Numbered from the stretch's first letter, positions 5,228-42,660 are shown. The stretch is DNA of 64,000 nt from Anaerohalosphaeraceae bacterium (GCA_963675525.2 CAXXSL010000013.1:184253-248252), one strand, 5' to 3'. Notes: a model not told the origin generated them from the letters alone. Numbers and translations are program-made.

Positions 5228-7102
5228 ATGTCATTGCGTGAAAGAATTTCGGTTGTCCTGTTCATCATGTTCTGCTGTTACGGCGGGCTTGAATATGCCG
5301 CGCAGCGATGGCTGATATATCCGGAGTTTGTCTCCCAGGAACAGCAACAAGCCCAAAACTCTAGTAATAAAGTCATAAAAGCCATTAATACCCGATTTTC
5401 TGATTTCCGCAATCAGATCGTCACATCCGCCCAATCCGGGGAAATCGATTCAATGCTCAAAAACACGGCTAACCGCAATGCCATCGGCCAGATCGAAGCC
5501 GCGGATTTTATCGTCCTGTTTGACTATAAATGGAATCCTGTTTTCAGTCAACTTTCCGAGCAAATCACGCCGGAACAGTTTCGGAAGGAACTGCTGGAAG
5601 GCACGACGCCGTTTCTGACAAAAAAACAAATGGGGTTTTCCAAAAAAGGAATTTGCACCCTCAACGGACAGTTCATCTATCTCGTCACCGAACCGGTTCT
5701 GGCGTCCCCTCAAAATAATAAAATCGAGGGAATGGTCTTTGCCGGACAATTCCTCACGGACGAAAGTTTTGAAAAACTTCGCCGGGAACTGAACCTCAGC
5801 TTCAACTGGGATATTCTGACACCCGACAACCAAAAGAAGGAGAATTCGGAAATCATCGATCGAATTACGGCCGAAAAGCCCTATGACTTTTTATCACTGG
5901 GCGACAACTTCATGCAATGCTCGACGGCTCTTTTTGATTATCAGAACCACCCCGCCCTTTTGATCAAAACATTCCGGGATAAAAGTATCAGTGTACAGGG
6001 TTTACAGGCCGTCCATAAGTCTATTCTCATCAAGCTGGTGGCAGGGTTTGTAGCCGTATTATTTGTTATTGTACTTTTGCAGATGGTCGTCATCAGCCCT
6101 ATTATGAAGCTGATAAAGCATGTCGTCAAACTTGAACACCCCGGCAGTGCGAAACAGAAATGTATCCTGTCACGGAAAGATGAGATAGGCACTCTGGCCA
6201 CAGAGTTCGACCAGATGTGCCAACGGGTACAGAATGCACAAGTAAAATTGATGGAAAAATCATACCTGTCCGGTGCCACAGAAATGTCATCCGGCATCCT
6301 GCATAATGTCCGAAATGCCCTCAGTCCGATCACGACCCGCATCGGACGAATCAAAGACCAGTTCCATGATATCCCGCTGGATAATCTTGAAAAGGCGCGG
6401 GAAGAACTGAAAAAAGGAAGCCTCACTCCTGAACGGCGAGCGGATTTGATGCGATTCGTAGAATTGACATTCCAGCAGGTTATGGACAATCTCAAAGAAA
6501 CCGTCTCCGGACTGGAAGACCTTTGCGGGCAGGTTAGTCAAATCGAAGACATGCTCAATACGCAGAGAACTTTTGGCTCCAAAGATGACAAGCCGGTTGA
6601 GTTCATCGAACCCGCCCGGCTGTTAGAAAATGCGATAGGAATGATTCCTGAAAAAATTAAAACAAAAAACCGGATACAGATCTGCCCGAAAATTCAGGAA
6701 CTGCCGGCAATTCCCGTCCATTCGACAACATTCATACAAATCCTGCAAAATCTTATCATAAATGCGTCTGAATCGCTGGAACGTGAAACCCCTCTTTGCC
6801 CCAAAATCAATGTTTCCTGTAAAATCGATCCGCAGCAGGACACCGTCGATATGATGCACTGGAAAATCGAGGACAACGGCACCGGCATCCCGGCGGATAA
6901 AATTGAGACTATTTTTGAACGGGGTGCCTCGTCAAAAACCAAGGGGTTAACGGGCATCGGACTGCACTGGTGCGCCAATACGATCAATGCAATGAAAGGA
7001 CGCCTCTGGGCCGAAAGTGATGGTCTTCACAAGGGCGCCTGTTTCCATATTACAATGCCGATGGCAGCGGAAGAATGCCTTGCGGGAACGAAAGAAGGAT
7101 AG
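5228..7102 (+). CDS. Sensor histidine kinase (two TM segments, extracytoplasmic domain)
   Basis: 624 aa. N-terminal TM and second TM (VAGFVAVLFVIVLLQMVVI). H-box-like SGILHNVRNALSPI, N-box LQNLIINASES, G1 DNGTGIP, G2 GLTGIGL. Confidence 0.8.
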   Translation: MSLRERISVVLFIMFCCYGGLEYAAQRWLIYPEFVSQEQQQAQNSSNKVIKAINTRFSDFRNQIVTSAQSGEIDSMLKNTANRNAIGQIEAADFIVLFDYKWNPVFSQLSEQITPEQFRKELLEGTTPFLTKKQMGFSKKGICTLNGQFIYLVTEPVLASPQNNKIEGMVFAGQFLTDESFEKLRRELNLSFNWDILTPDNQKKENSEIIDRITAEKPYDFLSLGDNFMQCSTALFDYQNHPALLIKTFRDKSISVQGLQAVHKSILIKLVAGFVAVLFVIVLLQMVVISPIMKLIKHVVKLEHPGSAKQKCILSRKDEIGTLATEFDQMCQRVQNAQVKLMEKSYLSGATEMSSGILHNVRNALSPITTRIGRIKDQFHDIPLDNLEKAREELKKGSLTPERRADLMRFVELTFQQVMDNLKETVSGLEDLCGQVSQIEDMLNTQRTFGSKDDKPVEFIEPARLLENAIGMIPEKIKTKNRIQICPKIQELPAIPVHSTTFIQILQNLIINASESLERETPLCPKINVSCKIDPQQDTVDMMHWKIEDNGTGIPADKIETIFERGASSKTKGLTGIGLHWCANTINAMKGRLWAESDGLHKGACFHITMPMAAEECLAGTKEG

Positions 7103-7107
7103 ACATT

Positions 7108-8415
7108 ATGGACTTAAAAAAAGAGCTGAACAAACGAATTCTACTGGTAGATGACGAACCGAAGATCCTTGAAGAACTGCAGAAAGTTCTCGTGCCGGCC
7201 GAAACAAACGGCAAGGAACTGCAGGAGTTGCAGGGTCGGCTGTTCGGGGAATCCGCCTCATCCGGCACCGCAAAGGCAACCTATGATGTACACTGCTGCC
7301 GGCAGGGAGATGAGGCACTGGAAGTCGTTCGGCAGGCTCAGGAAAACAATGAGCCGTTTGCCGTGGCGTTTATGGATGTTCGAATGCCGCCGGGACCGGA
7401 TGGCGTCTGGACCGCCGAACATATAAGAGAAATCGACCCGAATATACAAATCGTCATGATGACGGGCTATTCGGATTTTGACATCAGCGAGATCGCCAAA
7501 CGGGTACCGCCCGAAGATAAACTCCTGTATGTCCAGAAACCGATTCACACACAGGAAATCCGCCAGTTCGCGCTGGCGCTGACCGCCAAATGGCAGTCAG
7601 ATTATCTGCTCCATATCCAGAACGCCCAACTCAAAGATGCCAATGAAAAACTGAAAAAGCTCGACCATATGAAAAGCGAATTCGTCATGACCGTATCGCA
7701 TGAGTTGCGCACGCCCCTGACGATCTTTAAAAATATCATCTCGAACGCCATTGCCGGAGTCATGGGGAAAATCCCTCCCAAGCTCGAACATAATCTTAAA
7801 ATGGCTGACGAAGCCGTCAATCGACTGTCCAGTATCATCAGTGATTTTCTGGATGTCTCCAAGCTCGACGTCGGGAAAATGAAACTGCATCAGGAGGTCC
7901 TCTGCGTCCAGACCGTCATGAATGAAATCGGCGAAATGGCCCGCTTCGTAACCGGCAATAAACACATCCATTTTGACGTAAATTTGCCCTCGGATGATCT
8001 TTATATCTATGCGGATATTGAAAAGATCACGCGCATCATTAACAATCTGATTGAAAACGCCGCAAAATTCGTACCCGAGGGGACCGGTGAAATCACCATG
8101 CGAGTGGAGGAAATCGGCGGCGACCGCATCGGCATCTTTGTCAAGGATAACGGTCCCGGCATCCCCGGCGATGATAAAGAAAAAATATTCGACCAGTTCG
8201 TACAGATCGAAAAACACGTCGGTCCCGGCAAACACGGAACCGGGCTGGGTCTGTCGATCTGCCGCGAGTTGGTCCGGCTTCACTCCGGCCACATCTGGGT
8301 TGAAGACAATCCTGCAGGCGGAGCGATCTTTAAAATTCTTCTGCCTAAATGGGATGTCCAGGAAAATCGCTACGCCGTAACGGATGTCCTTCAGGAAGAA
8401 ACCGTTACCGTATAG
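7108..8415 (+). CDS. Hybrid response-regulator/histidine kinase (REC-HisKA-HATPase)
   Basis: Start placed at ATG 7108 (GAAGGA 8 nt upstream, just after the upstream TAG at 7100-7102) rather than the track start 7075. REC motifs LLVDDEP, MDVRMPPGPDG, VQKP. HisKA SHELRTPL. HATPase NLIENAAKF, DNGPGIP, GTGLGLSI. Confidence 0.85.
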   Translation: MDLKKELNKRILLVDDEPKILEELQKVLVPAETNGKELQELQGRLFGESASSGTAKATYDVHCCRQGDEALEVVRQAQENNEPFAVAFMDVRMPPGPDGVWTAEHIREIDPNIQIVMMTGYSDFDISEIAKRVPPEDKLLYVQKPIHTQEIRQFALALTAKWQSDYLLHIQNAQLKDANEKLKKLDHMKSEFVMTVSHELRTPLTIFKNIISNAIAGVMGKIPPKLEHNLKMADEAVNRLSSIISDFLDVSKLDVGKMKLHQEVLCVQTVMNEIGEMARFVTGNKHIHFDVNLPSDDLYIYADIEKITRIINNLIENAAKFVPEGTGEITMRVEEIGGDRIGIFVKDNGPGIPGDDKEKIFDQFVQIEKHVGPGKHGTGLGLSICRELVRLHSGHIWVEDNPAGGAIFKILLPKWDVQENRYAVTDVLQEETVTV

Positions 8416-8612
8416 TTAATGCAGGATGTTGCCGGTTCCGGGCGCAAACCGACATGACAGGCAACCCTTAATTCACCTTTAATACCCACTCCTCAATGAA
8501 TCGTGCCAAAATCGGAGTTTTGCCGGGTTTTCTGCCATAATGGCATATCTGCTTTGTGTTCGATAATTTTTAAGTCCTTTCAATAGAAAGAGTTAAGATT
8601 ATATTTTTTGTC

Positions 8613-8628
8613 TGGCACGCTGATTGCA
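8613..8628 (+). promoter_or_regulatory. Sigma54-type -24/-12 promoter upstream of dnaK
   Basis: TGGCACGctgaTTGCA matches the RpoN consensus TGGCACG-N4-TTGCW at every specified position, 69 nt upstream of the dnaK ATG. Palindrome TCTGCCATaaTGGCA lies at 8531-8545. Confidence 0.55.
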
Positions 8629-8696
8629 ATAATATTGAAAAGAGACACTATAACTTTGATATTTGAGATGAACAATCAATCATAGGAGTAAAAACA

Positions 8697-10628
8697 ATGG
8701 GTAAGATCATTGGAATTGACTTGGGAACAACCAACTCAGTCGTAGCCGTCATGGAAGGCTCAGCGCCGAAGGTTCTGATCAACGCGTCCGGAGCCCGGTT
8801 GACCGCCTCCGTAGTCGGCTTCACTGAAAAAGGTGAACGCCTGGTCGGACAAACCGCCAAACACCAGCAGGTCACGAACCCGCAAAACACCGTTTATTCA
8901 ATCAAACGGTTTATGGGACGCCGCCACAAAGAAGTCAGCAGCGAAGAAAAGATCGTCCCTTACAAAATTACAGGTGGTGCTGACGAACTGGTCAAGGTCG
9001 ATGTCCGAGGTAAGGAATACACCCCGCCGGAGATTTCGGCCATGATTCTGCAGGACCTGAAAAAGACCGCCGAGGATTACCTCGGCGAAACCATTGAGCA
9101 GGCGGTCATTACCGTACCGGCCTACTTTAACGATGCCCAGCGCCAAGCCACCAAGGACGCCGGCAAGATCGCAGGCCTGAAGGTTGAACGCATCATCAAC
9201 GAACCGACTGCCGCGGCACTGGCATACGGACTGGAAAAAAAGAAAAACGAAAAAGTCGCCGTATTTGACTTCGGCGGCGGCACATTCGATATCTCGATCC
9301 TCGATATCGGCGATAACGTCTTTGAAGTACTCAGCACCAACGGCGATACACATCTCGGCGGTGACGACCTCGACGAATTGCTGATGAACTACCTGGCCGA
9401 TGAATTCAAAAAGACCGAAGGCATCGACCTGCGGACCGATCCGATGGCGCATCAGCGGCTGAAAGAGGCCGCTGAAAAGGCCAAATGTGAACTGAGCACG
9501 CAGGTCGAAACAGCCGTGAACCTGCCGTTTATCACAGCGGATGCTTCGGGCCCCAAACACCTGAATATCACCATTACTCGCAGCAAATTCGAGGCACTGG
9601 CCGAGCCGATCTTCGAGCGTCTGCGTCAGCCCTGCCTGAAAGCCATTCAGGACGCAAAGCTGAGTACCAGCCAAATCGCGGAAGTCCTGATGGTCGGCGG
9701 TTCAACCCGTATCCCGATGGTCCAGCAGATTGCCCAGGAGATCTTCGCTAAGGCCCCAAACAGAAGCATCAACCCGGACGAAGTGGTTGCAATGGGTGCA
9801 GCGGTTCAGGGCGCGGTGCTGGCAGGCGATGCCGGCGTCAAAGACATTCTGCTGTTGGACGTAACCCCCCTGTCGCTCGGTGTCGAGACACTGGGCGGCG
9901 TCTTAACCAAACTGATCGAACGCAACACCACGATCCCAACCAGCAAAAAGGAAGTCTTCTCGACCGCTGCCGACAGCCAGACCAGCGTGGATATCCACGT
10001 CCTGCAGGGCGAACGGGAATTTGCCCGCGACAACCGCACACTGGGCCGGTTCCAGTTAACGGATATCCCGCCCGCTCCGCGCGGTATGCCGCAGATTGAA
10101 GTCACATTCGACATTGACGCCAATGGCATTCTGAACGTCTCTGCCAAAGACCTTGGCACCGGAAAGGAACAGTCTATCAAAATTCAGTCCAGTTCGGGCC
10201 TAAGCGAAGACGAAGTCGAAAAGATGCAGAAAGACGCCGAGGCACACGCCGAAGAAGACAAAAAGCGTCGTGAGGTCGTCGATCTGAAAAACCAGGCCGA
10301 CCAATTGGTCTATTCGACCGAAAAAACCCTCAAAGAGCACGGCGAAAAGGTTTCCGCCGAGATTCGCGGAAACATTGAAAGTGCCCTGAACAATCTCAAG
10401 GAAGCCGCTAAAGGGGACGACGGCGAAGCCATCAAACGAACGATGGAGAAACTGGGAGAAGCCTCTCAGGAACTGGGTAAAGTTCTCTATGAAGAAGCTG
10501 CCAAACAGCAGGCCGCACCGGGTGGTGCAGCACCGGAAACCGATCCCGGCCAGGCACCCGAAGGCGAGGTCCGCAGAAAAGGCGATGATGATGTGATTGA
10601 CGCGGAATTTGAAGCAAAAGACAGCTAA
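8697..10628 (+). CDS. dnaK: Molecular chaperone DnaK (Hsp70)
   Basis: 643 aa with Hsp70 signatures [22 protein letters not shown] and [19 protein letters not shown]. Acidic C-terminal tail. Confidence 0.97.
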
Positions 10629-10860: not shown

Positions 10861-11238
10861 ATGGATTCAGGGACGATTAGTCTGAAAAAATCCGAAAATG
10901 GGTCGATGCGTCTTTATGTTTTCTCCCCCTCAAAGCACGACAGGCTCTATCAACTCCAAATGGAAACCCTCTCCGACCGCCTGCCAACCCTGACCGACCA
11001 CCAGATCACCATTGCCGAAGTCTTTGAGCATGAAACCGGACACATCGGCGAAGACGAACTGGGCGGAGAAAACTGCCATGGACTCCGGCAGCAGTTTCAT
11101 ATCATGCCCGGCCAGTTCAAAGTGGTTCTCGTCAGCGATTCGGCCGTCAAACTCAGTGCCGAGTCATGCATCTCTTGCGAAGAAGTCATCATGCGCATCG
11201 AAAACGAACCGCTCGAAACAAGATTTTCAGGCTTCTAA
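10861..11238 (+). CDS. Hypothetical protein (possibly DUF4174-like)
   Basis: 125-aa ORF. The pattern LYVFSPSKHDRLYQLQ...L..HQITIAEVF resembles DUF4174 from memory only. No catalytic motif. Confidence 0.4.
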   Translation: MDSGTISLKKSENGSMRLYVFSPSKHDRLYQLQMETLSDRLPTLTDHQITIAEVFEHETGHIGEDELGGENCHGLRQQFHIMPGQFKVVLVSDSAVKLSAESCISCEEVIMRIENEPLETRFSGF

Positions 11239-14752: not shown

Positions 14753-16281
14753 TTAATATTTTCTGTCCAGACGGCGGTACTGGATCGCCTCGGCAATATG
14801 ATCGGGCTGGATATGCTCCTGATTTTCAATGTCGGCAATCGTCCGGGCAACCTTGCAGATCTTATCGTGGGCACGGGCCGAAAGCGAAAACTCCATCAGC
14901 GCCTGCCGAAGTAATTGCTCGGCGCTGTCGCTGAGCTGGCAGAACTTTTCGACCTGCCGGTGAGGCATGGTCGCATTGGTTTTGGTGCTGTCGCCAAACC
15001 GCTGGAACTGTCTTTGGCGGGCCCTGTCAACATGGCCGCGTAACTGCTCCGAACCGGTACCGTTATGACCCCGACTGCGAAGTTTGCGAAACTCCACCGG
15101 CGGCACCTCGATATGGATATCGATCCGGTCCAGCAGTGGACCGGATATCTTGGCCAGATATCGCTCGATCTGATTCGGTGTGCAGCGGCACTTTTTCGCA
15201 TACGTCCCGAAGTATCCGCACGGACAGGGATTCATCGCCGCCATCATGATAAACTGAGCCGGAAAACACAGCGTTCCTCTCGCGCGGGAGATCGTCACGG
15301 TTCCCTCCTCCAGCGGCTGACGGATCATCTCGAGCACATGACGAGGAAACTCGGCAAACTCATCCAGGAACAGGATGCCGTGATGGGCCAGGCTCAACTC
15401 ACCCGGGCGTGGATGCGTACCGCCGCCAACCAATGCCGGACCGGACGCGGTATGGTGCGGGGTTCGAACCGGCCGGGCCGCAACCAGCGCGTTACCCTTC
15501 TGCAAAAGACCGACGGACGAATAGATACGTGTCGTCTGAAGCGATTCGGACAGCGTCATTTGCGGCAGGATCGTCGCCATCCGGTGCGCCAGCATCGTTT
15601 TGCCAACTCCCGGCGGGCCGATCATCATCACATTATGCGCCCCGGCCGCGGCAATCGTTAACGCCCGCTTAACACTTTCCTGGCCCTTTACATCAGAAAA
15701 ATCCACCTCGTATTCTTTCGTTCGGTCGAACAGGGCCTCGACATCGACACTGACCGCCTCAATATCAAGCCTCTCCGACAAAAATGCCACAGCCTGAGCC
15801 AACGAGCCGATTGCGTACACCTCAATATCCTGAACGACTGCCGCCTCCGACGCATTATCCAACGGCACCAGAATCCCCCTAAAACCATGCTTGGCCGCAG
15901 TCATCGCCATACTGAGTACCCCGTTGACGGGACGAACCCGGCCATCCAGCGCTAATTCACCGACGACCACAAAATCACCCAGTTTGTCGCTGACCATCGC
16001 CCCGGAACAGACCAGCATTCCCAATGCGATCGGCAGATCAAAAGCAGGACCTTCTTTTTTGACATCGGCAGGTGCCAAATTGATGAGGGCTTCGGTGTCG
16101 GGATAACGAAATCCGGAATTGACGATGGCACTGCGAACACGTTCGGCACTTTCCTTGACCGCGGCATCCGGCAGACCAACAATTGTCGCCGGTCAAAACC
16201 GCCCCGTGAAACATCTACCTCTACCTCGCAGAGAAGCCCTTCAATTCCTTCCAATGTCACCGAAAACAGCTTTGCCAGCAT
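14753..16281 (-). pseudogene. comM: Mg-chelatase-like ATPase ComM/YifB, reading frame broken once
   Basis: Two track ORFs (15952-16281 and 14753-16078) together encode a ComM/YifB protein. N-terminus MLAKLFSVTLEGIEGLLCEVEVDVSRGG, then after a shift near 16191-16200 PATIVGLPDAAVKESAERVRSAIVNSGFRYPDTEALINLAPADVKKEGPAFDLPIALGML. Walker A GPPGVGKT downstream. Confidence 0.8.
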
Positions 16282-17712: not shown

Positions 17713-18765
17713 ATGAAAACAGACGACCTCAAATACGACCTGCCGGAAGAACTGATCGCCCAGTCGCCCGCCTCAAAAGCGTAAACTGTCGCGGTTGCTG
17801 GTTGTGGACCGCTCACAGGACTCGCTGTCGGACTGCCTTTTCAGCGATCTGCCCGACTATCTCAGGAGCGGCGATTGCCTGGTGCTCAATAATACCAAGG
17901 TGCTCCCGGCTCGATTCTATGCGCAAAAGCCGACGGGCGCTCAACTTGAGGGGCTGTTCCTGGTTGAAGAGGCTCCCGGAACGTGGCAGGTGTTGTTGAA
18001 AAACTCGCGGAAGATCAGGTCCGGCGATACGCTTGAACTGCTGGACCGCCATCACAAGCCGTGGTGTGTCGGGCTGTCGCGCACAAAAGCCAAACGCCGG
18101 GACAGTGGCTGCTGCAGCCCCAAACAAAAACGGATGCATTGAGCTGCCTGGAGCAAATCGGGCTTGCTCCCCTCCCGCCATATATCAAACGCACTGCCGA
18201 CGATGCGCATCTTCAGGAAGACCTGGATCGTTATCAGACCGTTTATGCCGCCCAGCCCGGCGCGGTGGCCGCGCCGACCGCGGGCCTGCATTTTGACAAA
18301 GCGATGTTGGAGCAAATTCAGCAGATGGGTGTTCGGATCGCCTATGTCACCCTGCACGTCGGCATCGGCACCTTCCGGCCGGTGCAAACCGAAACGCTGG
18401 ACGAACACCCCATGCACGAGGAACGCTACGAGATCGCCCCGGTCGCCGCCGAAACGATCAATCGGACCGTTCAGGCAGACGGACGGATCATCGCTGTCGG
18501 TACCACATCCGTCCGGACACTCGAATCGGTCGCTGCAGATCAAAGCGTCCGAGCCGAAAAAGGAAAGACAAAATTATTCATCCAGCCGGGGTATGAATAC
18601 AAGATCGTCGATGCCATGGTCACCAATTTCCACCTGCCCAAATCAACCCTGCTGGCATTGGTCGGTGCTTTCGCCGGAATGGACAGAACCCAGAACGCCT
18701 ACCGCCACGCCATCGAAAACAAGTACCGCTTCTACTCCTACGGTGACGCCATGCTTATCCTGTAA
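17713..18765 (+). pseudogene. queA: S-adenosylmethionine:tRNA ribosyltransferase-isomerase QueA, frame broken twice
   Basis: ATG 17713 gives MKTDDLKYDLPEELIAQSPASK, then TAA at 17782. Removing one A from the A-run 17775-17778 restores ...SKRKLSRLLVVDRSQDS (ORF 17795-18142). A second shift near 18059-18064 joins to ORF 18061-18765 (PLPPYIKR, GAVAAPTAGLHF, AVGTTSVRTLES, VTNFHLPKSTLL, YRFYSYGDAMLI). Confidence 0.85.
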
Positions 18766-18789
18766 TGGGTAAAAATTGTTTAAACAGCA

Positions 18790-19967: not shown

Positions 19968-21777
19968 TTATATTTGCCAGTAGATTTCCATGCCGCAGTC
20001 GCCGCAGTGGAAACGAAGTTCAAAAGTCCGACCATCTTCATCAACCAGCACCAGCGGTTCGGCCGGGTTATCCCGGTTATTCCCTTCGCACAACCCCAAT
20101 TGCCTTCTGATGCAGTATTTCGTCGTCATCAGCTTTTGCCCGTGTAGGTCCAGGCCGCTTTCGGCGGCCGGTTCGATGGTCTGAACGCCATGCCGCCGGT
20201 AAAATTCTTCCGCCTTTTCATTCAGCACATTGCCCGTAAAGGATAGATGCGTTTCGGGATACGGCGTTTGGTTTTTTATGACACAACCGGAAAGTTTTGG
20301 CCGGTTTTTCTCGCGAATCGACAGCATTGCTTCCACAAGCCCCCGTTTCAGTGCATTCAGCGTCGAGACGGGGAAAAAGTAAACATCCGCCGTTTCGATA
20401 TTAACCGCCTCGCACACAAACAGCGTATTGCCCAGCTTGCCCAGTTGCACAGCAGCCGTTTTCTGCGCCTGCTCTTTTTTCTGTGCGAGCGGCTTCTCGA
20501 CCGCCATCTCAAAAATCGCCTCATTGCCATCTTCATCAACGCCGCACAACGCAATACCGGTATCCGTATCCCGCAGCGTCATCGTCAAGCCGATTTTCCG
20601 CTCGGCGAGCTTTTCAAGCTGCTTTTCAAACCCATGGTCAAAGTTCCGCCGGATTTCGGTGCCAGCCCGCAGGTGTTCGATTTCTGGGGATAAATGCGCT
20701 GACCTTCGACGCGATTGACCACCGTGCCTGCCAGATTATTTGCCGCATCAAAAAAACAAATGCCGTCGCCATTGTGCAACAGCACCGTACCATCTATCTC
20801 AAACCAATCACGCTGCACGTCTTTGACTGTGCCGATAAACTCACCCATCGACTTGGGGCTGTCAATCGATCCCATTTTTTCAGACGGCCGGGCCAATCCG
20901 TACGTTGTAAATCCCCGGTTGAATGTCTTTTGCGGGTCCGGCTGGAAATTCAAAGCAACCCGGCCTGATGAATTCTTTCGCAATCCTTTTGCGGCCAGAA
21001 TCGTGTCCAGTTTTTGCCGGTAGAATCCCACCACATTGGCCGCATACGGCGCATCCTTCAGCCGGCCTTCGATCTTAAACGAGGTCACACCCGCATCAAT
21101 CAGCGATGCCAGATGCTCGGACAAATTCAAATCCTTCAGTGACAACAGATACCGGTCCTTGACAATCACATCGCCCTGCGAATCCTTCAGGCTGTATAAC
21201 CGCCGGCACGGCTGGGCACACTGTCCCCGGTTCCCGCTGCGTCCGCCCAGCGCATAACTCATGGTGCATTGCCCGCTGGCCCCCACACACAGCGCCCCGT
21301 GAACAAAACATTCCAGCTCGATCGATGTATCTTGCCGAATTCCGGCGAATCTGCTCCAGCGTCAGCTCCCGCGCAAGGATCGCCCGCGAAAAACCGACCG
21401 CTTCGAGAAACCGCACCTTCTCCACCGTCGCATTGTTCATCTGCGTACTGGCGATCAGCGGTATTGGCGGCAAATCCAGTTCCAGCAGGCCAGCGTCCTG
21501 AACGATCAGCCCGTCAACGCCGATGTCATAAAACTGGCGTATCATCGCCTCCGCAACCGCCAGTTCCTCATCGGTCAGCAGCGTATTCAGCGCAACATAC
21601 ACCCGCACATAATAAAGATGCGCCAGCTCAACCACCTGCCGAATGGTCTCCAGACTATTGCCCGCCGCCTGTCGCGCACTGAACCGCTCGGCCCCGATAT
21701 ACACCGCATCCGCCCCGCACAGAATCGCCGCCTGTGCGGTTTGGAAAATCTTTGGCCGGAGCAAGTAATTCAATCAT
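19968..21777 (-). pseudogene. Peptidase U32 family protein (collagenase-like/RlhA-like), frame broken three times
   Basis: ATG 21777 gives MIELLAPAKDF (conserved U32 N-terminus). A shift near 21744-21747 leads to QTAQAAILCGADAVYIGAERFSAR. A shift near 21341-21350 leads to IRQDTSIELECFVHGALCVGASGQCTMSYALGGRSGNRGQCAQPCR (U32 signature). A shift near 20685-20689 leads to EIEHLRAGTEIRRNFDH...LTMTLRDTD and the C-terminal domain. Confidence 0.8.
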
Positions 21778-22354: not shown

Positions 22355-23982
22355 TTAATACATGTCGCCGCCGGGCATCGCCGGGGCTTTCTTCTTTTCC
22401 GGTATCTCGCTGACCATCGCATCCGTCGTCAGCAGCAGCGACGCAATCGACGCCCCGTTCTGCAGCGCCGTGCGTTCGACCTTCGTCGGCACGATCACGC
22501 CGAACTTGACCATATCGCCGTATTCCTTGCGGACCGCGTCATAGCCGAAGTTCTTTTCTTTCGATTCCATGACTTTCTGAGCGACAATCGAACCGTCCAG
22601 CCCCGCATTGACCGCGATCTGCTTGATCGGCGCCACCACGGCCCGGCGGATAATATCCACACCGACTTTTTCGTCGCCGATGCATTCGACCTTATCCAGC
22701 ACGCCCAGGCACTTCAGCGTCGAAACGCCGCCGCCCGGCAGAATCCCTTCTTCAACCGCCGCACGGCACGCATGCAAGGCATCCTCGACGCGGGCTTTCT
22801 TTTCCTTCATCTCCGCCTCGGTCGCCGCACCCGACATTGATCTGTGCGACACCGCCGGCCAGCTTGGCCAGACGTTCCTGCAATTTCTCAATATCATAAT
22901 CGCTGGTCGATGCGTCGATCTCGCGTCTTGATCTGCTCGATGCGGCCTCTTGATATCGGCCGTCTTGCCGGCGCCTTCGACAATCGTCGTGTTGTCCTTG
23001 TCAATGGTGATGCGTTTGGCCTGGCCCAACTGTTTCAGCTCGACTGTTTCAAGATTGAGGCCGAGGTCTTCGAACAAGCGCCTGTCCGCCGGTCAGTACC
23101 GCGATATCGGCCAGCATGGCTTTCCGGCGGTCGCCGAAACCCGGAGCCTTGACCGCACACACCTGCAAAACACGCCGCGCAGCTTATTGACCACCAGTGT
23201 CGCCAGTGCTTCGCCTTCCACATCTTCGGCAATGATCAACAGCGGCCGACCCTGCTTGGCAACCTTCTCCAACACCGGCACCAGTGACTTGATCGCACTG
23301 ATTTTCTTTTCATGGATCAGGATATAAGGCTTGTCCAGCACAACCGTGCGGTCTTCCGGCATTATTGATGAAATGCGGGCTGAGATACCCTTTGTCAAAC
23401 TGCATCCCTTCAAGCAGCTCGACATGTCGTTTCCAGCGACTGGCCTTCTTCGACAGTAATCACGCCGTCCTTGCCGACTTTTTCCATGGCCTGGGCCAGC
23501 GTCTTGCCGATCTCGGCATCCTGGTTGGCCGAACAGGTCGCGACCTGCTCGATCTGCTTGCCGGACTCAACCGGCGTGCTCATCTTTTTCAACGCCTCGA
23601 CGATCGCCTCAACGGCCTTGTCGATGCCGCGTTTGACCTGCATGGCATTGGCTCCGGCGGTAATATTCTTTAACCCTTCCTCAAAAATGGATTCGGCCAA
23701 AATCGTCGCCGTCGTCGTCCCGTCACCGGCCACGTTCGACGTCTTGGACGCCACTTCCTTGACCATCTGGGCGCCCATGTTCTCGTAAGAATCTTCCAAC
23801 TCGATTTCCTTGGCCACCGAGACACCGTCTTTGGTCACCGTGGGGCTGCCGAACGATTTTTCCAAAATCACGTTGCGTCCGCACGGGCCGAGTGTCACCT
23901 TGACCGCCGCCGCCAGTTTTTTAACGCCCTGGCGAATCGCTTCGCGGGCCTCTGTATTAAATGCAATCTTTTTCGCTGCCAT
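22355..23982 (-). pseudogene. groL: Chaperonin GroEL, reading frame broken about seven times
   Basis: Three track ORFs (23410-23982, 23093-23425, 22355-23077) plus out-of-frame stretches reconstruct a full GroEL: [13 protein letters not shown]...[12 protein letters not shown]...[12 protein letters not shown] / [22 protein letters not shown] / [20 protein letters not shown]...KLRGV / [31 protein letters not shown] / FEDLGLNLE...ADIK / GRIEQIKT / [31 protein letters not shown] / [20 protein letters not shown]...PGGDMY. Confidence 0.9.
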
Positions 23983-24399: not shown

Positions 24400-24428
24400 T
24401 AAAAACGCCATGGCGCAAGCCATGCGAA
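24400..24428 (-). repeat. 29-nt hairpin repeat (copy 1) forming a terminator-like structure in the groES leader
   Basis: Plus strand reads TAAAAACGCCATGGCGCAAGCCATGCGAA, identical to 29813-29841. On the minus strand it reads TTCGCATGGC-TTGC-GCCATGGCG followed by TTTTTA, and lies between the putative sigma54 promoter and the groES RBS. Confidence 0.7.
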
Positions 24429-24451
24429 TCCTCAACTACGAATTATCCTAT

Positions 24452-24469: not shown

Positions 24470-24876
24470 ATCCAATCCCGAACCCACACATATAAACGCT
24501 ATTTCCTTTATTTAAAAGGTCTTACGAAAACATAACTTGCTTTTTACACCCGCCGTCCAAACCCAATTAGACAGACCCGCCGAACCCTGACCTGCCAGCA
24601 TGGCAGACATGGGACCGTAACCGTCTCGGTCACATTTTAATAATGCGGGCGGGACGCCCGCGCTCCCATCCATCCGTAAAAACAAATTTTTTGCCATTTA
24701 ATCCTAGTTTTTATCGGAATTCAACTTGACATCAGATGTTCTCTGTCTGATAATTACCTACAATTGGAGAGAGGGACATTTCTGGAAATTAAGGAGTTCC
24801 CGCACGAAAAATCTTAAGCCTCAGAACCCAAGGCTCAAGGCTGATTTTAAGACTAATTCAATTGGAGAACGGAAAG

Positions 24877-34502: not shown

Positions 34503-34997
34503 ATGCTTTGTCAAAACTGCAAAGAACATACAGCAACCGTACACCTAACCGAAATGTCCGACGGACAGCGGAGCGAAACGCATTTGTGTCAGCAGTGCGC
34601 CCAGCAGCAGGGACTGGCCATCAAAACACAGATTCCCCTGAACGAACTACTCGGCACGCTGCTCAGTACCCAGCCGGAAAGCGGCGAGAAAAAAAACTCC
34701 CCTGCCGCCGAACACCCGTGCCCGAATTGCGGAATGACGCTTAAACGCTTTTCAAAAGAAAGCCTGCTCGGCTGTCCGCATGATTACACGGAATTTGAGC
34801 ATGAATTGAAGCCCCTGATCGAGCAGACCCAAAACGGAAAAGACCATCACTGCGGCAAAGTCCCGTCCCGCATCCCGAAAGAAGACCGTCAGGATGCCGA
34901 GCTGATCAAGCTGAACCGTCAGTTGGACGTTGCCGTCAAAAATGAAGATTACGAAACCGCCGCAAGATTGCGGGATCAGATAAAGTCATGCACATGA
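34503..34997 (+). CDS. mcsA: Protein-arginine kinase activator McsA (zinc fingers plus UVR motif)
   Basis: 164 aa. CQNC...CQQC and CPNC...GCPHDY zinc-finger pairs. C-terminal UVR motif LNRQLDVAVKNEDYETAARLRDQIK. Overlaps the mcsB start. Confidence 0.8.
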   Translation: MLCQNCKEHTATVHLTEMSDGQRSETHLCQQCAQQQGLAIKTQIPLNELLGTLLSTQPESGEKKNSPAAEHPCPNCGMTLKRFSKESLLGCPHDYTEFEHELKPLIEQTQNGKDHHCGKVPSRIPKEDRQDAELIKLNRQLDVAVKNEDYETAARLRDQIKSCT

Positions 34998-36052
34998 GAC
35001 CGGCCGATTTATGTCAATATCCAAGTTCGTGGTTTGCGGGAGGAACCGATATTCTCTCCGAGGTGGTCATCTCCTCGCGCATTCGGCTGGCTCGCAATAT
35101 TGCCGGCTATGAGTTTCTTTCCTGCCTGTCGCCCGACCGCCAGCAGCAGTTGCTGGATCGCATCAAAGAGACGCTTTTGTCGCTGGACCTCGGCGGCAAG
35201 GTGGATTATGTTGACATCGACCATGCCTCGGACATCGAACGCAGTCTGTTTGTCGAACGGCATCTTATCAGTCAGCGGCACGCCAAAGGGACCGGCCCGC
35301 GCGGTGTCGTGATCGCCAAAGACGAAGCGTTCACGGCGATGATCAACGAAGAAGATCATCTGCGTATCCAGGTCTATGCGGCCGGACTGCAATTGCATGC
35401 CTGTTGGGAACGCATCAACCGCATCGACGATGCGATCGAGCAAAAACTTGACTATTCATTTGACATCCGGCGAGGATACCTGACCGCCTGCCCGACAAAT
35501 CTGGGCACCGGCATCCGCGTCTCCGTGATGCTGCATCTGCCCGCGCTGAAAATGACCGGCCAGATCGAAAAATTCATGCAGGCCGCACGCGACTGCAATC
35601 TGGCTGTTCGCGGCCTCTTCGGCGAAGGCACCGAAGCCGTCGGCGATTTCTTCCAGTTGTCCAACCAGGTCACGCTCGGCGTCAGCGAAAAACAGATCGT
35701 CGATGACTTCACTGAGCGGATCGTTCCGAAGATCATCGCTTATGAAGCCGAAGCCCGCAAAACTCTGCTGGAGAAAAAGCCCCACGCACTGGACGACAAG
35801 ATCCAGCGGGCATTGGGTGTGCTGCGAAGCGCCTGCCTGATCAGTTCGCAGGAAGCCCTCTTTTTGTTGAGCAATGTACGTCTGGGCGTCAATGTCGGCC
35901 GGGTCAAGGATATCAGCCTGTCCACCGTCAACGAGTTGTTCATGCTGACTCAGCCGGCCCATTTGCAGTTACGTGCCGGTAAGATCCTCAACGCCGATCA
36001 GCGCGATACACTCCGCGCCGAGATTATCCGGTCCCGTATGAACCGAAACTAA
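34988..36052 (+). CDS. mcsB: Protein arginine kinase McsB (ATP:guanido phosphotransferase family)
   Basis: 354 aa. SSRIRLARNI..Y.F, EEDHLRIQ, and YLTACPTNLGTGIRVSVMLHLPAL are phosphagen-kinase catalytic-domain signatures. Confidence 0.9.
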   Translation: MHMRPADLCQYPSSWFAGGTDILSEVVISSRIRLARNIAGYEFLSCLSPDRQQQLLDRIKETLLSLDLGGKVDYVDIDHASDIERSLFVERHLISQRHAKGTGPRGVVIAKDEAFTAMINEEDHLRIQVYAAGLQLHACWERINRIDDAIEQKLDYSFDIRRGYLTACPTNLGTGIRVSVMLHLPALKMTGQIEKFMQAARDCNLAVRGLFGEGTEAVGDFFQLSNQVTLGVSEKQIVDDFTERIVPKIIAYEAEARKTLLEKKPHALDDKIQRALGVLRSACLISSQEALFLLSNVRLGVNVGRVKDISLSTVNELFMLTQPAHLQLRAGKILNADQRDTLRAEIIRSRMNRN

Positions 36053-41659: not shown

Positions 41660-42548
41660 GAAGAAACTATGGGGAGAAATAAAGGGTTAATTAAAGAAAC
41701 TATGAAAGCCAGATACTCGGGGACGAATTTGTTATAATCGTCCCCAAGACGTGCTCGTCACAGGGACGGCACAAAAATTTATTCTCGTAAATTTTAGGAG
41801 TATCTGGCATGGAGACTATTTTAGCGATTGATCTGGGCAAAAACAAGAGCGTCTTTTGTGAAATGAGTCGCCGTTCTTTAAAAACTCAATATCGCACCGT
41901 TCGCACACGTTCCGAAGTATTCCACGACATTTTCACCGAACTGGACGCGGCCCATTCGATAGTACTGTTCGAGGTCGGCAGTCAGGCCGGCTGGGTTTCG
42001 GACATGTTGCGGACCATGGGCCTCGACTTTAAAGTCGCCAACACCAATGACCCGGCGTGGAAGTGGGCCAACAATCCTACCAAGAGCGACAAAACGGATG
42101 CCCATCGGCTGGCGATGATGTACCACCACGGTTTTTTTCCGGAGGTTTATATTCCCCGCAAGGAGATCCGTCAAAAACGTTCGTTGATCTATTATCGCCA
42201 AAAGCTTGTCAACCGCATGACACAGGTTAAAAACAGCATCCGGGCCCTGATGTGTACAATGGCCATTGATCTACCGATGGGTCGTAACTGCTGGACGAAA
42301 AAACAACTCAAGGTGTTATCAGAACATACTGTTCCACTTGAGGCTGTTGATGACACCTGCAACTTATGGCGGGGACAGCTTTATTGCGAATTGCAGCAAT
42401 ATGCGGCCTTGCAAGAGCAGTTAACGAATGTGACCGCTAAACTGGATGCACTGAACAAGCAAAAATCGGCAGTAACCTTACTGCAAACCGTTCCCGGCGA
42501 GAAACTAAAGGTTCCCCGAGAAACTAAAGGTTCCCGGAACCTTTTTTG
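41660..42548 (+). mobile_element. IS110-family insertion sequence remnant (transposase 3'-truncated)
   Basis: Non-coding 5' region (41660-41808) with hairpin GGGGACGAATTTGTTATAATCGTCCCC. Then a DEDD/RuvC-like IS110 transposase N-domain. The coding similarity stops at LLQTVPG (about 42490), where a perfect 19-bp tandem duplication and a hairpin with T-run follow. Confidence 0.7.
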
Positions 42549-42660
42549 GGTCTTCATCAATTCAAAACTCAAAATTATCGGTTATTTGTTTGACATTCAC
42601 CTAACTTCTGCTAAAATACACCGTGTCGCGTCGGAGACTCGGCGAAGACGGAAAAATTAA
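41809..42660 (+). pseudogene. IS110-family transposase, C-terminal (Transposase_20) domain missing
   Basis: METILAIDLGKNKSVFC...VLFEVGSQAGWVSDML...KSDKTDAHRLAMMY...IRQKRSLIYYRQKLV matches the IS110 DEDD N-domain. After LLQTVPG the expected GVG...HhH/Ser-catalytic domain is replaced by unrelated low-complexity sequence. Confidence 0.7.
42498..42535 (+). repeat. Perfect 19-bp tandem duplication (CGAGAAACTAAAGGTTCCC x2)
   Basis: 42498-42516 is identical to 42517-42535. It sits exactly where IS110 transposase homology ends, and is followed by hairpin AAAGGT-TCCCGGA-ACCTTT plus TTTT. Confidence 0.9.

Follow-up and report, generated by a model that had tools for sequence, protein, structure and literature searches.

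Introduction

Promoters read by sigma-54 (RpoN) are unable to open unaided. In the NtrC-glnAp2 and PspF-pspA systems, a promoter with GG and GC doublets is combined with a dyad-symmetric site about 80 to 140 bp upstream, activation depends on the face of the helix on which that site lies, a bend made by IHF is often involved, and the regulon of PspF is one of stress. A chaperone operon under sigma-54 control is found in Bradyrhizobium japonicum, where the NifA-dependent groESL3, one of several groESL copies and one that is tied to nitrogen fixation, has a -24/-12 promoter and an upstream activator site of the form TGT-N10-ACA. The lonD promoter of Myxococcus xanthus is also sigma-54-dependent. 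Here, we examine a 64,000-nucleotide stretch of DNA from an Anaerohalosphaeraceae bacterium (GCA_963675525.2 CAXXSL010000013.1:184253-248252; this whole 64-kb stretch is referred to below as the window), in which the chaperone genes dnaK and groES each lie behind a predicted sigma-54 promoter and an upstream palindrome. Our analysis follows up an initial annotation, made from the sequence alone, which had proposed that sigma-54 and a shared upstream activator sequence (UAS) jointly control both operons.

The nearest precedent for an activator-driven heat-shock gene is the HsfB/HsfA phosphorelay of M. xanthus, in which the NtrC-like HsfA, phosphorylated by a hybrid kinase, directly activates the heat-shock gene lonD (Ueki and Inouye 2002, cited in PMC9109919). 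As far as the accessible account of it extends, HsfA controls this one protease gene together with secondary-metabolite and pilus genes, and not the core dnaK and groESL genes. For the Planctomycetota, the accessible part of a survey with position-specific scoring matrices (PMC12316311, PLoS One 2025) describes predicted sigma-54 promoters at the genes for DnaK, DnaJ, GrpE, GroEL, GroES, and IbpA, both in this phylum, including Phycisphaerae, and in Bacteroidota. The two promoters in our window are instances of the trend described in that part of the survey, which is computational and, unlike the present analysis, names no enhancer sequence, activator, or spacing rule there.

Two other studies, Francke 2011 and Wecker 2009, make no link between sigma-54 and planctomycete chaperones. 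Our literature search found no account of an enhancer sequence, a spacing rule, an activator, or an experiment in Planctomycetota, and a search with the motif strings gave nothing relevant. The initial annotation had called the circuit unusual. That judgment should be moderated: the basic idea had already been predicted computationally, at least as a trend in the accessible part of the 2025 survey (PMC12316311), whereas the enhancer motif, its phasing, and the specificity of the regulon appear to be new as far as the searchable literature shows.

Set beside these systems, the window resembles groESL3 in having a -24/-12 promoter and a putative upstream activator site before a groES gene, and it differs in that the main dnaK and groES genes and a wider set of chaperones are concerned and the palindrome is a different one. 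It shares its architecture with NtrC-glnAp2 and PspF-pspA, and its palindrome resembles a shortened NtrC site (TGCACC-N5-GGTGCA), but the regulon, which consists of cytoplasmic chaperones, and the sequence of the site are not theirs. Sigma-32, HrcA with its operator CIRCE (controlling inverted repeat of chaperone expression), CtsR, and HspR with its operator HAIR (HspR-associated inverted repeat) act on the same targets (dnaK, groESL, clpB, hsp20, and clpP), yet we found none of the DNA signatures that mark them in front of the window's dnaK or groES. Those regulators work by sigma replacement or repression, whereas the control that we propose for the window would be positive and ATP-dependent. 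The Chlamydiae, which belong to the same superphylum, use HrcA (PMC4652624).

Results

Promoters and palindromes in the window

Upstream of dnaK, the sequence TGGCACGCTGATTGCA (8613-8628, plus strand) is an exact match to the sigma-54 promoter pattern TGGCAC-N5-TTGCW, and a second exact match, TGGCACAATGTTTGCA, lies on the minus strand upstream of groES (24468-24453). Both read exactly TGGCAC-N5-TTGCA and are oriented toward dnaK and groES, respectively, and in both the GG and GC doublets stand one helical turn apart within YTGGCACG-N4-TTGCW (GG at 8614-8615 and GC at 8626-8627 for dnaK; GC at 24455-24454 for groES). Neither strand of the window holds a third match; shuffled sequences gave a mean of 0.05, and 0 of 100 shuffles reached two. 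When the pattern was relaxed to two mismatches, we found 18 matches in the window against 33 expected, and thus nothing beyond chance. The initial annotation is therefore upheld in its description of a correctly oriented RpoN -24/-12 consensus before dnaK, in its claim that the groES operon has the same two elements, and in its statement that the promoter occurs at these two loci only.

The last base of TGGCACGCTGATTGCA is 69 nt from the dnaK ATG (8697), as had been annotated, and TGGCACAATGTTTGCA ends about 95 nt from the groES ATG (24358). From the usual geometry of the -12 element, we predict that transcription of dnaK would start at about 8638-8640, giving a 5' untranslated region (UTR) of about 58 nt, and that transcription of groES would start at about 24441-24443, with a 5' UTR of about 84 nt.

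Each promoter is preceded by a palindrome that we take as its predicted enhancer, or UAS. At dnaK, this is tCTGCCATAATGGCAta (8531-8547), with the core TGCCA-N3-TGGCA at 8533-8545; at groES, it is TCTGCCATGCTGGCA on the minus strand (24593-24607), with the core at 24593-24605. The form TCTGCCAT-NN-TGGCA occurs exactly in the window only at 8531-8545 and 24593-24607 (0.09 expected), and TGCCA-N3-TGGCA, which describes the core better, likewise has no exact copies in the window beyond the two cores. When the initial T of TGCCA and that of TGGCAC are taken as reference points, palindrome and promoter are 80 nt apart at dnaK and 137 nt apart at groES, and both genes have a dyad-symmetric site within 70 to 150 bp upstream of the -24 element. 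A possible weak second activator site, TGCCAAAATCGGA (8507-8519), lies 26 nt upstream of the main dnaK palindrome and has two mismatches to it; we propose it tentatively. Degenerate copies similar to TGCCAAAATCGGA occur in a few close relatives, and the family-wide logo contains no positionally conserved second site.

Conservation in relatives

We compared the window with 80 loci whose DnaK is 81-93% identical to its own, taken from bacterial and archaeal assemblies with one genome per species. All 80 are labeled Planctomycetota, and most are metagenome-assembled genomes of Phycisphaerae, Sedimentisphaerales, or Anaerohalosphaeraceae, in line with a Sedimentisphaerales-like member of the class Phycisphaerae as the source of the window. 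In 74 of these relatives, dnaK is preceded by TGGCA[CT]-N5-TTGC[AT] at a distance of 59-154 nt from its ATG, and the remaining 6 have TGGCAC-N5-TTGCG, so that a sigma-54-type promoter precedes dnaK in 80/80. Only 3 further motifs of the sigma-54 type are present elsewhere in the approximately 560 kb of these loci. The "smaller presence" mentioned in the accessible part of the 2025 survey (PMC12316311) is weaker than this conservation in Phycisphaerae.

The palindrome is found upstream of dnaK in all 79 relatives whose loci extend far enough to show it (an exact copy in 74, a single mismatch in 5), one of the 80 loci having been left out of this count as too short to judge. A comparison with related genomes, which the initial annotation had suggested as a check, thus found both elements kept, the palindrome with at most one mismatch. 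Across 69 aligned dnaK sites, the consensus is tCTGCCA-(AAA/TAA)-TGGCAca, in which TGCCA and TGGCA are invariant and the flanks vary; the palindrome before dnaK in the window agrees with it. The DNA that separates the palindrome from the promoter cannot be aligned among the relatives, and the palindrome is present regardless of which gene lies upstream.

Spacing and helical phasing

To describe the spacing between the two elements, which together we call the module, we pooled 196 palindrome-promoter pairs from the window, the 80 genome loci, and 120 metagenome loci that are described below. The distances range from 78 to 146 nt and fall into classes near 80, 91, 102, 113, 124, and 135 nt. A period of 10.9 bp fits best (R = 0.655, a value reached by 0 of 2,000 uniform random sets), and 169 of the 196 sites deviate by no more than 2 nt from 80 + 11k, compared with 89 expected; since the sites are related by descent, these figures do not amount to a formal probability. 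Within the window, the distance at dnaK belongs to the 79-82 class, and that at groES is within 2 nt of the 135 class (80 + 5 x 11). Insertions and deletions have evidently been accepted in whole helical turns, which is the signature of an activator that faces its promoter across a DNA loop, and the phasing is as expected if looping takes place here.

IHF-like sites (WATCAANNNNTTR, with at most one mismatch) lie between palindrome and promoter in 61 of the 196 modules, compared with about 23 expected, and they are mostly situated 40-55 nt upstream of TGGCAC. In the window, no convincing IHF site was found, the best matches having 3 and 2 mismatches.

Genes downstream of the module in metagenomes

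In a scan of public metagenome contigs, we looked for CTGCCA-WWW-TGGCA with TGGCAC-N5-TTGC 66-126 nt farther on. The scan yielded at least 120 loci; among the matches listed, 12 had no room for a downstream gene and 108 could be assigned to one. Chaperone or protease genes accounted for about 96 of these 108 (about 89%, again among the matches listed), which is the enrichment that the initial annotation had suggested looking for. Specifically, among the matches listed, the downstream gene encoded HSP70 (DnaK) at 64 loci, Cpn60 (GroEL) at 20, Hsp20 at 6-7, ClpB (Clp_N) at 3, Cpn10 (GroES) at 2, and ClpP at 1, while about 12 loci had other genes. The operons behind the module take several forms, including groES, groEL, groEL-groES-groEL, and receiver(REC)-groES-groEL. 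The module is therefore a control element common to loci of the classical chaperone and protease set, namely, dnaK, groEL, groES, hsp20, clpB, and clpP.

Two of the metagenome DnaK proteins fall into clusters that bear the names Rhodopirellula sp., Pirellulales, or Pirellulaceae, which indicates that the module extends to the class Planctomycetia in addition to Phycisphaerae. On a GC-rich planctomycete contig (L152, 419-2100), the module stands before a stand-alone receiver gene that is co-oriented with groES-groEL, and the N terminus of the encoded GroEL is 80% identical to that of the window's GroEL.

Other control elements

As the initial annotation had stated, CIRCE (TTAGCACTC-N9-GAGTGCTAA) is absent: there is no match in the window at up to 3 mismatches and none in either upstream region at up to 5. 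The CtsR operator, (A/G)GTCAAA-NAN-(A/G)GTCAAA, has 0 matches in the window at up to 3 mismatches, compared with 2.9 expected, and none upstream of dnaK or groES. Genes for a McsA-like protein with a UVR motif and a McsB-like protein arginine kinase overlap as an operon at 34503-36052 in this window without a CtsR operator; in Firmicutes, McsA and McsB work together with the CtsR/ClpC stress system. A sigma-32 promoter (CTTGAAA-N13-17-CCCCATNT) was not found in either upstream region at up to 2 mismatches per box, and the search for HAIR gave only strings with 4 mismatches upstream of dnaK or groES.

Hexamers of the sigma-70 type occur near both window genes at chance level in a scan with the Escherichia coli consensus, which may not fit this phylum. 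With the same consensus, sigma-70-like promoters near dnaK in the 80 relatives numbered 1 against 0.9 expected in the interval between promoter and ATG and 3 against 1.5 expected farther upstream.

The predicted 5' UTRs of dnaK and groES fold no better than shuffled sequences (z = 0.21 for the groES UTR). With folding at this level, nothing favors an RNA thermometer, and we rejected both a thermometer and a structured leader as explanations. Inside the predicted groES 5' UTR, between the predicted sigma-54 start and the ribosome-binding site, there is a terminator-like match on the minus strand (24409-24424), made up of the hairpin CATGGCTTGCGCCATG and, after it, GCGTTTTT. Attenuation or a role as a leader hairpin is possible for this element.

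Search for the activator

Two kinase genes lie immediately upstream of dnaK, as had been annotated: 5228-7102 encodes a CHASE4 histidine kinase and 7075-8415 a hybrid receiver-kinase. The accompanying suggestion that these kinases form part of the circuit did not hold up, and we rejected it because they are adjacent to dnaK in none of the 80 relatives.

Among all loci that we examined, activator genes occur only beside copies of the module that are not linked to chaperones. One such locus (L082, 1218-4365) contains a kinase gene, a gene for an activator with receiver, AAA+, and HTH_8 domains, two tandem palindromes with a sigma-54 promoter, and a stand-alone receiver gene. Its activator belongs to a family with 67-87% identity over more than 120 clusters that bear the names Limisphaerales or Verrucomicrobiae, and its gene order and tandem palindromes recur at two other loci of Verrucomicrobiota (L201, 4899-7992, and L202, 5148-8931). 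An rpoD-like sigma-70 gene is situated further downstream of the receiver gene of L082. A different locus, L138, has a PAS kinase gene, an activator gene, the module, a DUF1328 gene, and a desulfoferrodoxin gene, with relatives in Kryptonia, Ignavibacteria, and Bacteroidota, and L104, from Chromatiales, has a divergent kinase-activator pair.

We rejected these module-linked activators as candidates for the activator of the window's own lineage, given that protein searches place all of them in other phyla; they are about 38-42% identical to one another and have generic Fis-type helices. The presence of NtrC-type activators beside the palindrome in several phyla does, however, favor this type of family, without favoring orthology. 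Stand-alone receiver genes behind the module (L082, L201, L202, and L152) hint at phosphorelay feedback, which in the case of L152 would operate inside the chaperone regulon. The receiver proteins of L082 and L152 were rejected as orthologues, at 20% identity.

Chaperone genes and their surroundings

The dnaK (Hsp70) gene is intact and encodes 643 aa (8697-10628, plus strand; Pfam HSP70, E = 1e-258), and the groES (Cpn10) gene is also intact, with 95 aa (24358-24071, minus strand; Pfam Cpn10, E = 4e-35). Downstream of groES, groEL (23982-22355, minus strand) is present at full length and is spread over three frames by two frameshifts, as judged from its open reading frame (ORF) pieces and tblastn. 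The pieces lie at 23982-23410, 23425-23093, and 23077-22355, and tblastn with a GroEL reference matches frames -1, -2, and -3 in that order. This split corrects the initial annotation. It belongs to a run of consecutive genes broken by frameshifts between 14753 and 23982, which comprises comM/yifB-like (14753-16281), queA-like (17795-18772), and U32 peptidase-like (19968-21773) genes and groEL (22355-23982). Genes elsewhere are intact, which points either to sequencing or assembly errors limited to this region or to pseudogenes clustered in it.

Directly 3' of dnaK is a DUF4174 gene (10861-11238), whose position is kept in the closest relatives (L001-L004, L006, and L078) and which may be cotranscribed with dnaK. 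Elsewhere in the window, an IS110-family (DEDD) transposase gene occupies 41809-42660.

Palindrome arrays in phage-like contigs

The 15-bp palindrome also occurs in pairs, as CTGCCATTTTGGCAG-N14-CTGCCATTTTGGCAG, in phage-like contigs (L147, which is metagenome contig Ga0208855_1001101, and viral loci L203-L279). Viral contigs contain 72 such stretches, and a single locus has as many as six copies. On the strand of the palindrome pair, TGGCA[CT]-N5-TTGC lies 3-5 nt 5' of it in 84 of 126 cases. The opposite strand of the phage pair has a strong TTGACA/TAGAAT promoter, placed back-to-back, that reads small phage genes. The geometry of these palindromes is unlike that of the host enhancers. We saw no activator or rpoN signature in the phage-array loci. 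Phages might use such arrays to tap or titrate a host activator that binds the palindrome.

Discussion

We consider the best explanation of these results, with a probability of roughly 0.8, to be that one sigma-54 promoter drives dnaK and another drives groES-groEL, and that both are activated, as parts of a chaperone regulon, by an enhancer-binding protein that acts at the shared palindrome. The joint control proposed in the initial annotation is supported by the conservation, the enrichment of chaperone genes, and the phased spacing, all of which, like the two elements themselves, are direct observations, and the association of the module with chaperone genes is specific.

Under this model, RNA polymerase with sigma-54 would be held at both promoters in a closed complex until a bacterial enhancer-binding protein binds TGCCA-N3-TGGCA 80-137 nt upstream. 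This activator, which is most probably an NtrC-type protein with a receiver, an AAA+ ATPase, and a Fis-type helix-turn-helix, would assemble an ATPase ring, loop the DNA on the correct helical face to reach the closed sigma-54 complex, and use ATP to open the promoter. Since both operons carry the same site, one activator would be expected to switch on both together. The signal might arrive through phosphorylation of the activator by a kinase or through chaperone titration. The closed complex, the opening of the promoter by a looped activator, and the joint induction are deduced from how sigma-54 promoters are known to work; the identity and domain type of the activator and the transcription starts are likewise deductions, and induction by heat or unfolded protein is suggested by the gene set alone.

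TGCCA-N3-TGGCA precedes dnaK, groEL, groES, hsp20, clpB, and clpP across Planctomycetota and would define the chaperone regulon of this lineage, responding to heat shock or proteotoxic stress. This sigma-54/enhancer regulon, which appears to be phylum-wide and to comprise core heat-shock genes, would take the place held elsewhere by sigma-32, HrcA/CIRCE, or CtsR. We regard a stronger version as possible, though doubtful. In that version, the whole core regulon of Planctomycetota (dnaK, groEL/ES, hsp20, clpB, and clpP) would be solely under sigma-54 and one NtrC-family activator that reads TGCCA-N3-TGGCA, in replacement of sigma-32/HrcA; rpoN and the activator would be near-essential; and the phage palindrome arrays with sigma-54-type promoters would tap or titrate this host circuit.

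Several points weigh against control by sigma-54 and an activator at the palindrome. Chaperones are normally needed at all temperatures, so a promoter dependent on sigma-54 alone would imply either basal activity of the activator or an unrecognized second promoter. Many activators use two or more sites, and each promoter in the window has one strong palindrome, the copy at 8507-8519 being weak. No rpoN gene is present in the 64-kb window, and we infer its presence in the source genome from the perfect conservation of the promoter. The window also contains no activator gene, as had been annotated: a search of the 40 largest ORFs gave no Sigma54_activat domain, and none of the six reading frames contains a GAFTGA signature. 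The heat-shock transcriptome study of R. baltica, the one such planctomycete study that we found, does not connect sigma-54 with chaperones and reports rpoN itself as unchanged (PMC2754498). The activator genes that adjoin the module all come from other phyla (Verrucomicrobiota, a group like Kryptonia, Ignavibacteria, or Bacteroidota, and Chromatiales). Finally, the counts for phasing and conservation cover related genomes and not independent events.

The constant need for chaperones is also what speaks for the alternative that survives best, although we think it unlikely. Here, the sigma-54 promoters would be real but auxiliary, everyday transcription of dnaK and groESL would come from an unrecognized housekeeping promoter, and the sigma-54 route would serve one condition unrelated to folding, comparable to NifA-dependent groESL3. 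Weak sigma-70-like hexamers near both genes, such as TTGAAA-17-GATATT at 8635-8663, would be candidates for the housekeeping promoter, but matches of this kind are at chance level in the window and show no excess ahead of dnaK among the 80 relatives. In addition, the genes behind the module make up nearly the full classical heat-shock set and are not a single spare paralogue.

In a less probable alternative, a separate repressor or some other dimeric regulator would use the palindrome as its operator, and the activator would bind elsewhere or act from solution. The single strong dyad at each promoter would suit an operator, and in phage-like contigs the palindrome lies just downstream of sigma-54-type promoters, which is not the geometry of an enhancer. 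At dnaK and groES, however, the site is clear of the promoter, beginning 80-137 nt upstream of the -24 element, and distances quantized in helical turns fit looping better than they fit occlusion. No other conserved upstream element offers itself as the enhancer, and in other phyla genes for NtrC-type activators directly adjoin the palindrome.

That the palindrome acts at the level of RNA, as the terminator hairpin of the upstream gene or as a leader structure, is very improbable. A simple scan did flag TGCCATAATGGCA and TATCTGCTTT as terminator-like. The stem is only 5 bp, though, and the site does not depend on the identity of the upstream gene; it also lies upstream of the predicted start and would therefore be outside the dnaK or groES mRNA. 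Its sequence is invariant among relatives without compensatory changes, which points to a DNA site bound by protein and not to an RNA hairpin. Chance matches without function, which the shortness of the motifs might suggest, are effectively refuted by the two exact promoters and two palindromes (0.05 and 0.09 expected), co-located and oriented at the two main chaperone operons, and by the retention of both elements in the 80 relatives.

Control of the chaperone genes by sigma-54 and an enhancer-bound activator would turn the statistical trend reported in the accessible part of the 2025 survey (PMC12316311) into a mechanistic model. Its cis-code consists of a 13-bp palindrome, an 11-bp spacing rule, and a defined set of genes, and it could be used to search for the activator by DNA-affinity methods or DNA affinity purification sequencing (with TGCCAAAATGGCA) and to annotate the stress regulons of uncultured Planctomycetota. 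Few bacterial circuits have been studied as thoroughly as heat-shock control. In contrast to the usual accounts based on sigma-32, HrcA, CtsR, or HspR, the core chaperones of a phylum would be governed by an enhancer-dependent, ATP-consuming sigma-54 switch. If this is true, then activation would be all-or-none and would require an AAA+ protein that senses a signal, rpoN would be linked with protein homeostasis and possibly with viability, and the sensing of proteotoxic stress in these bacteria must differ from the titration loops of DnaK/sigma-32 and GroEL/HrcA.

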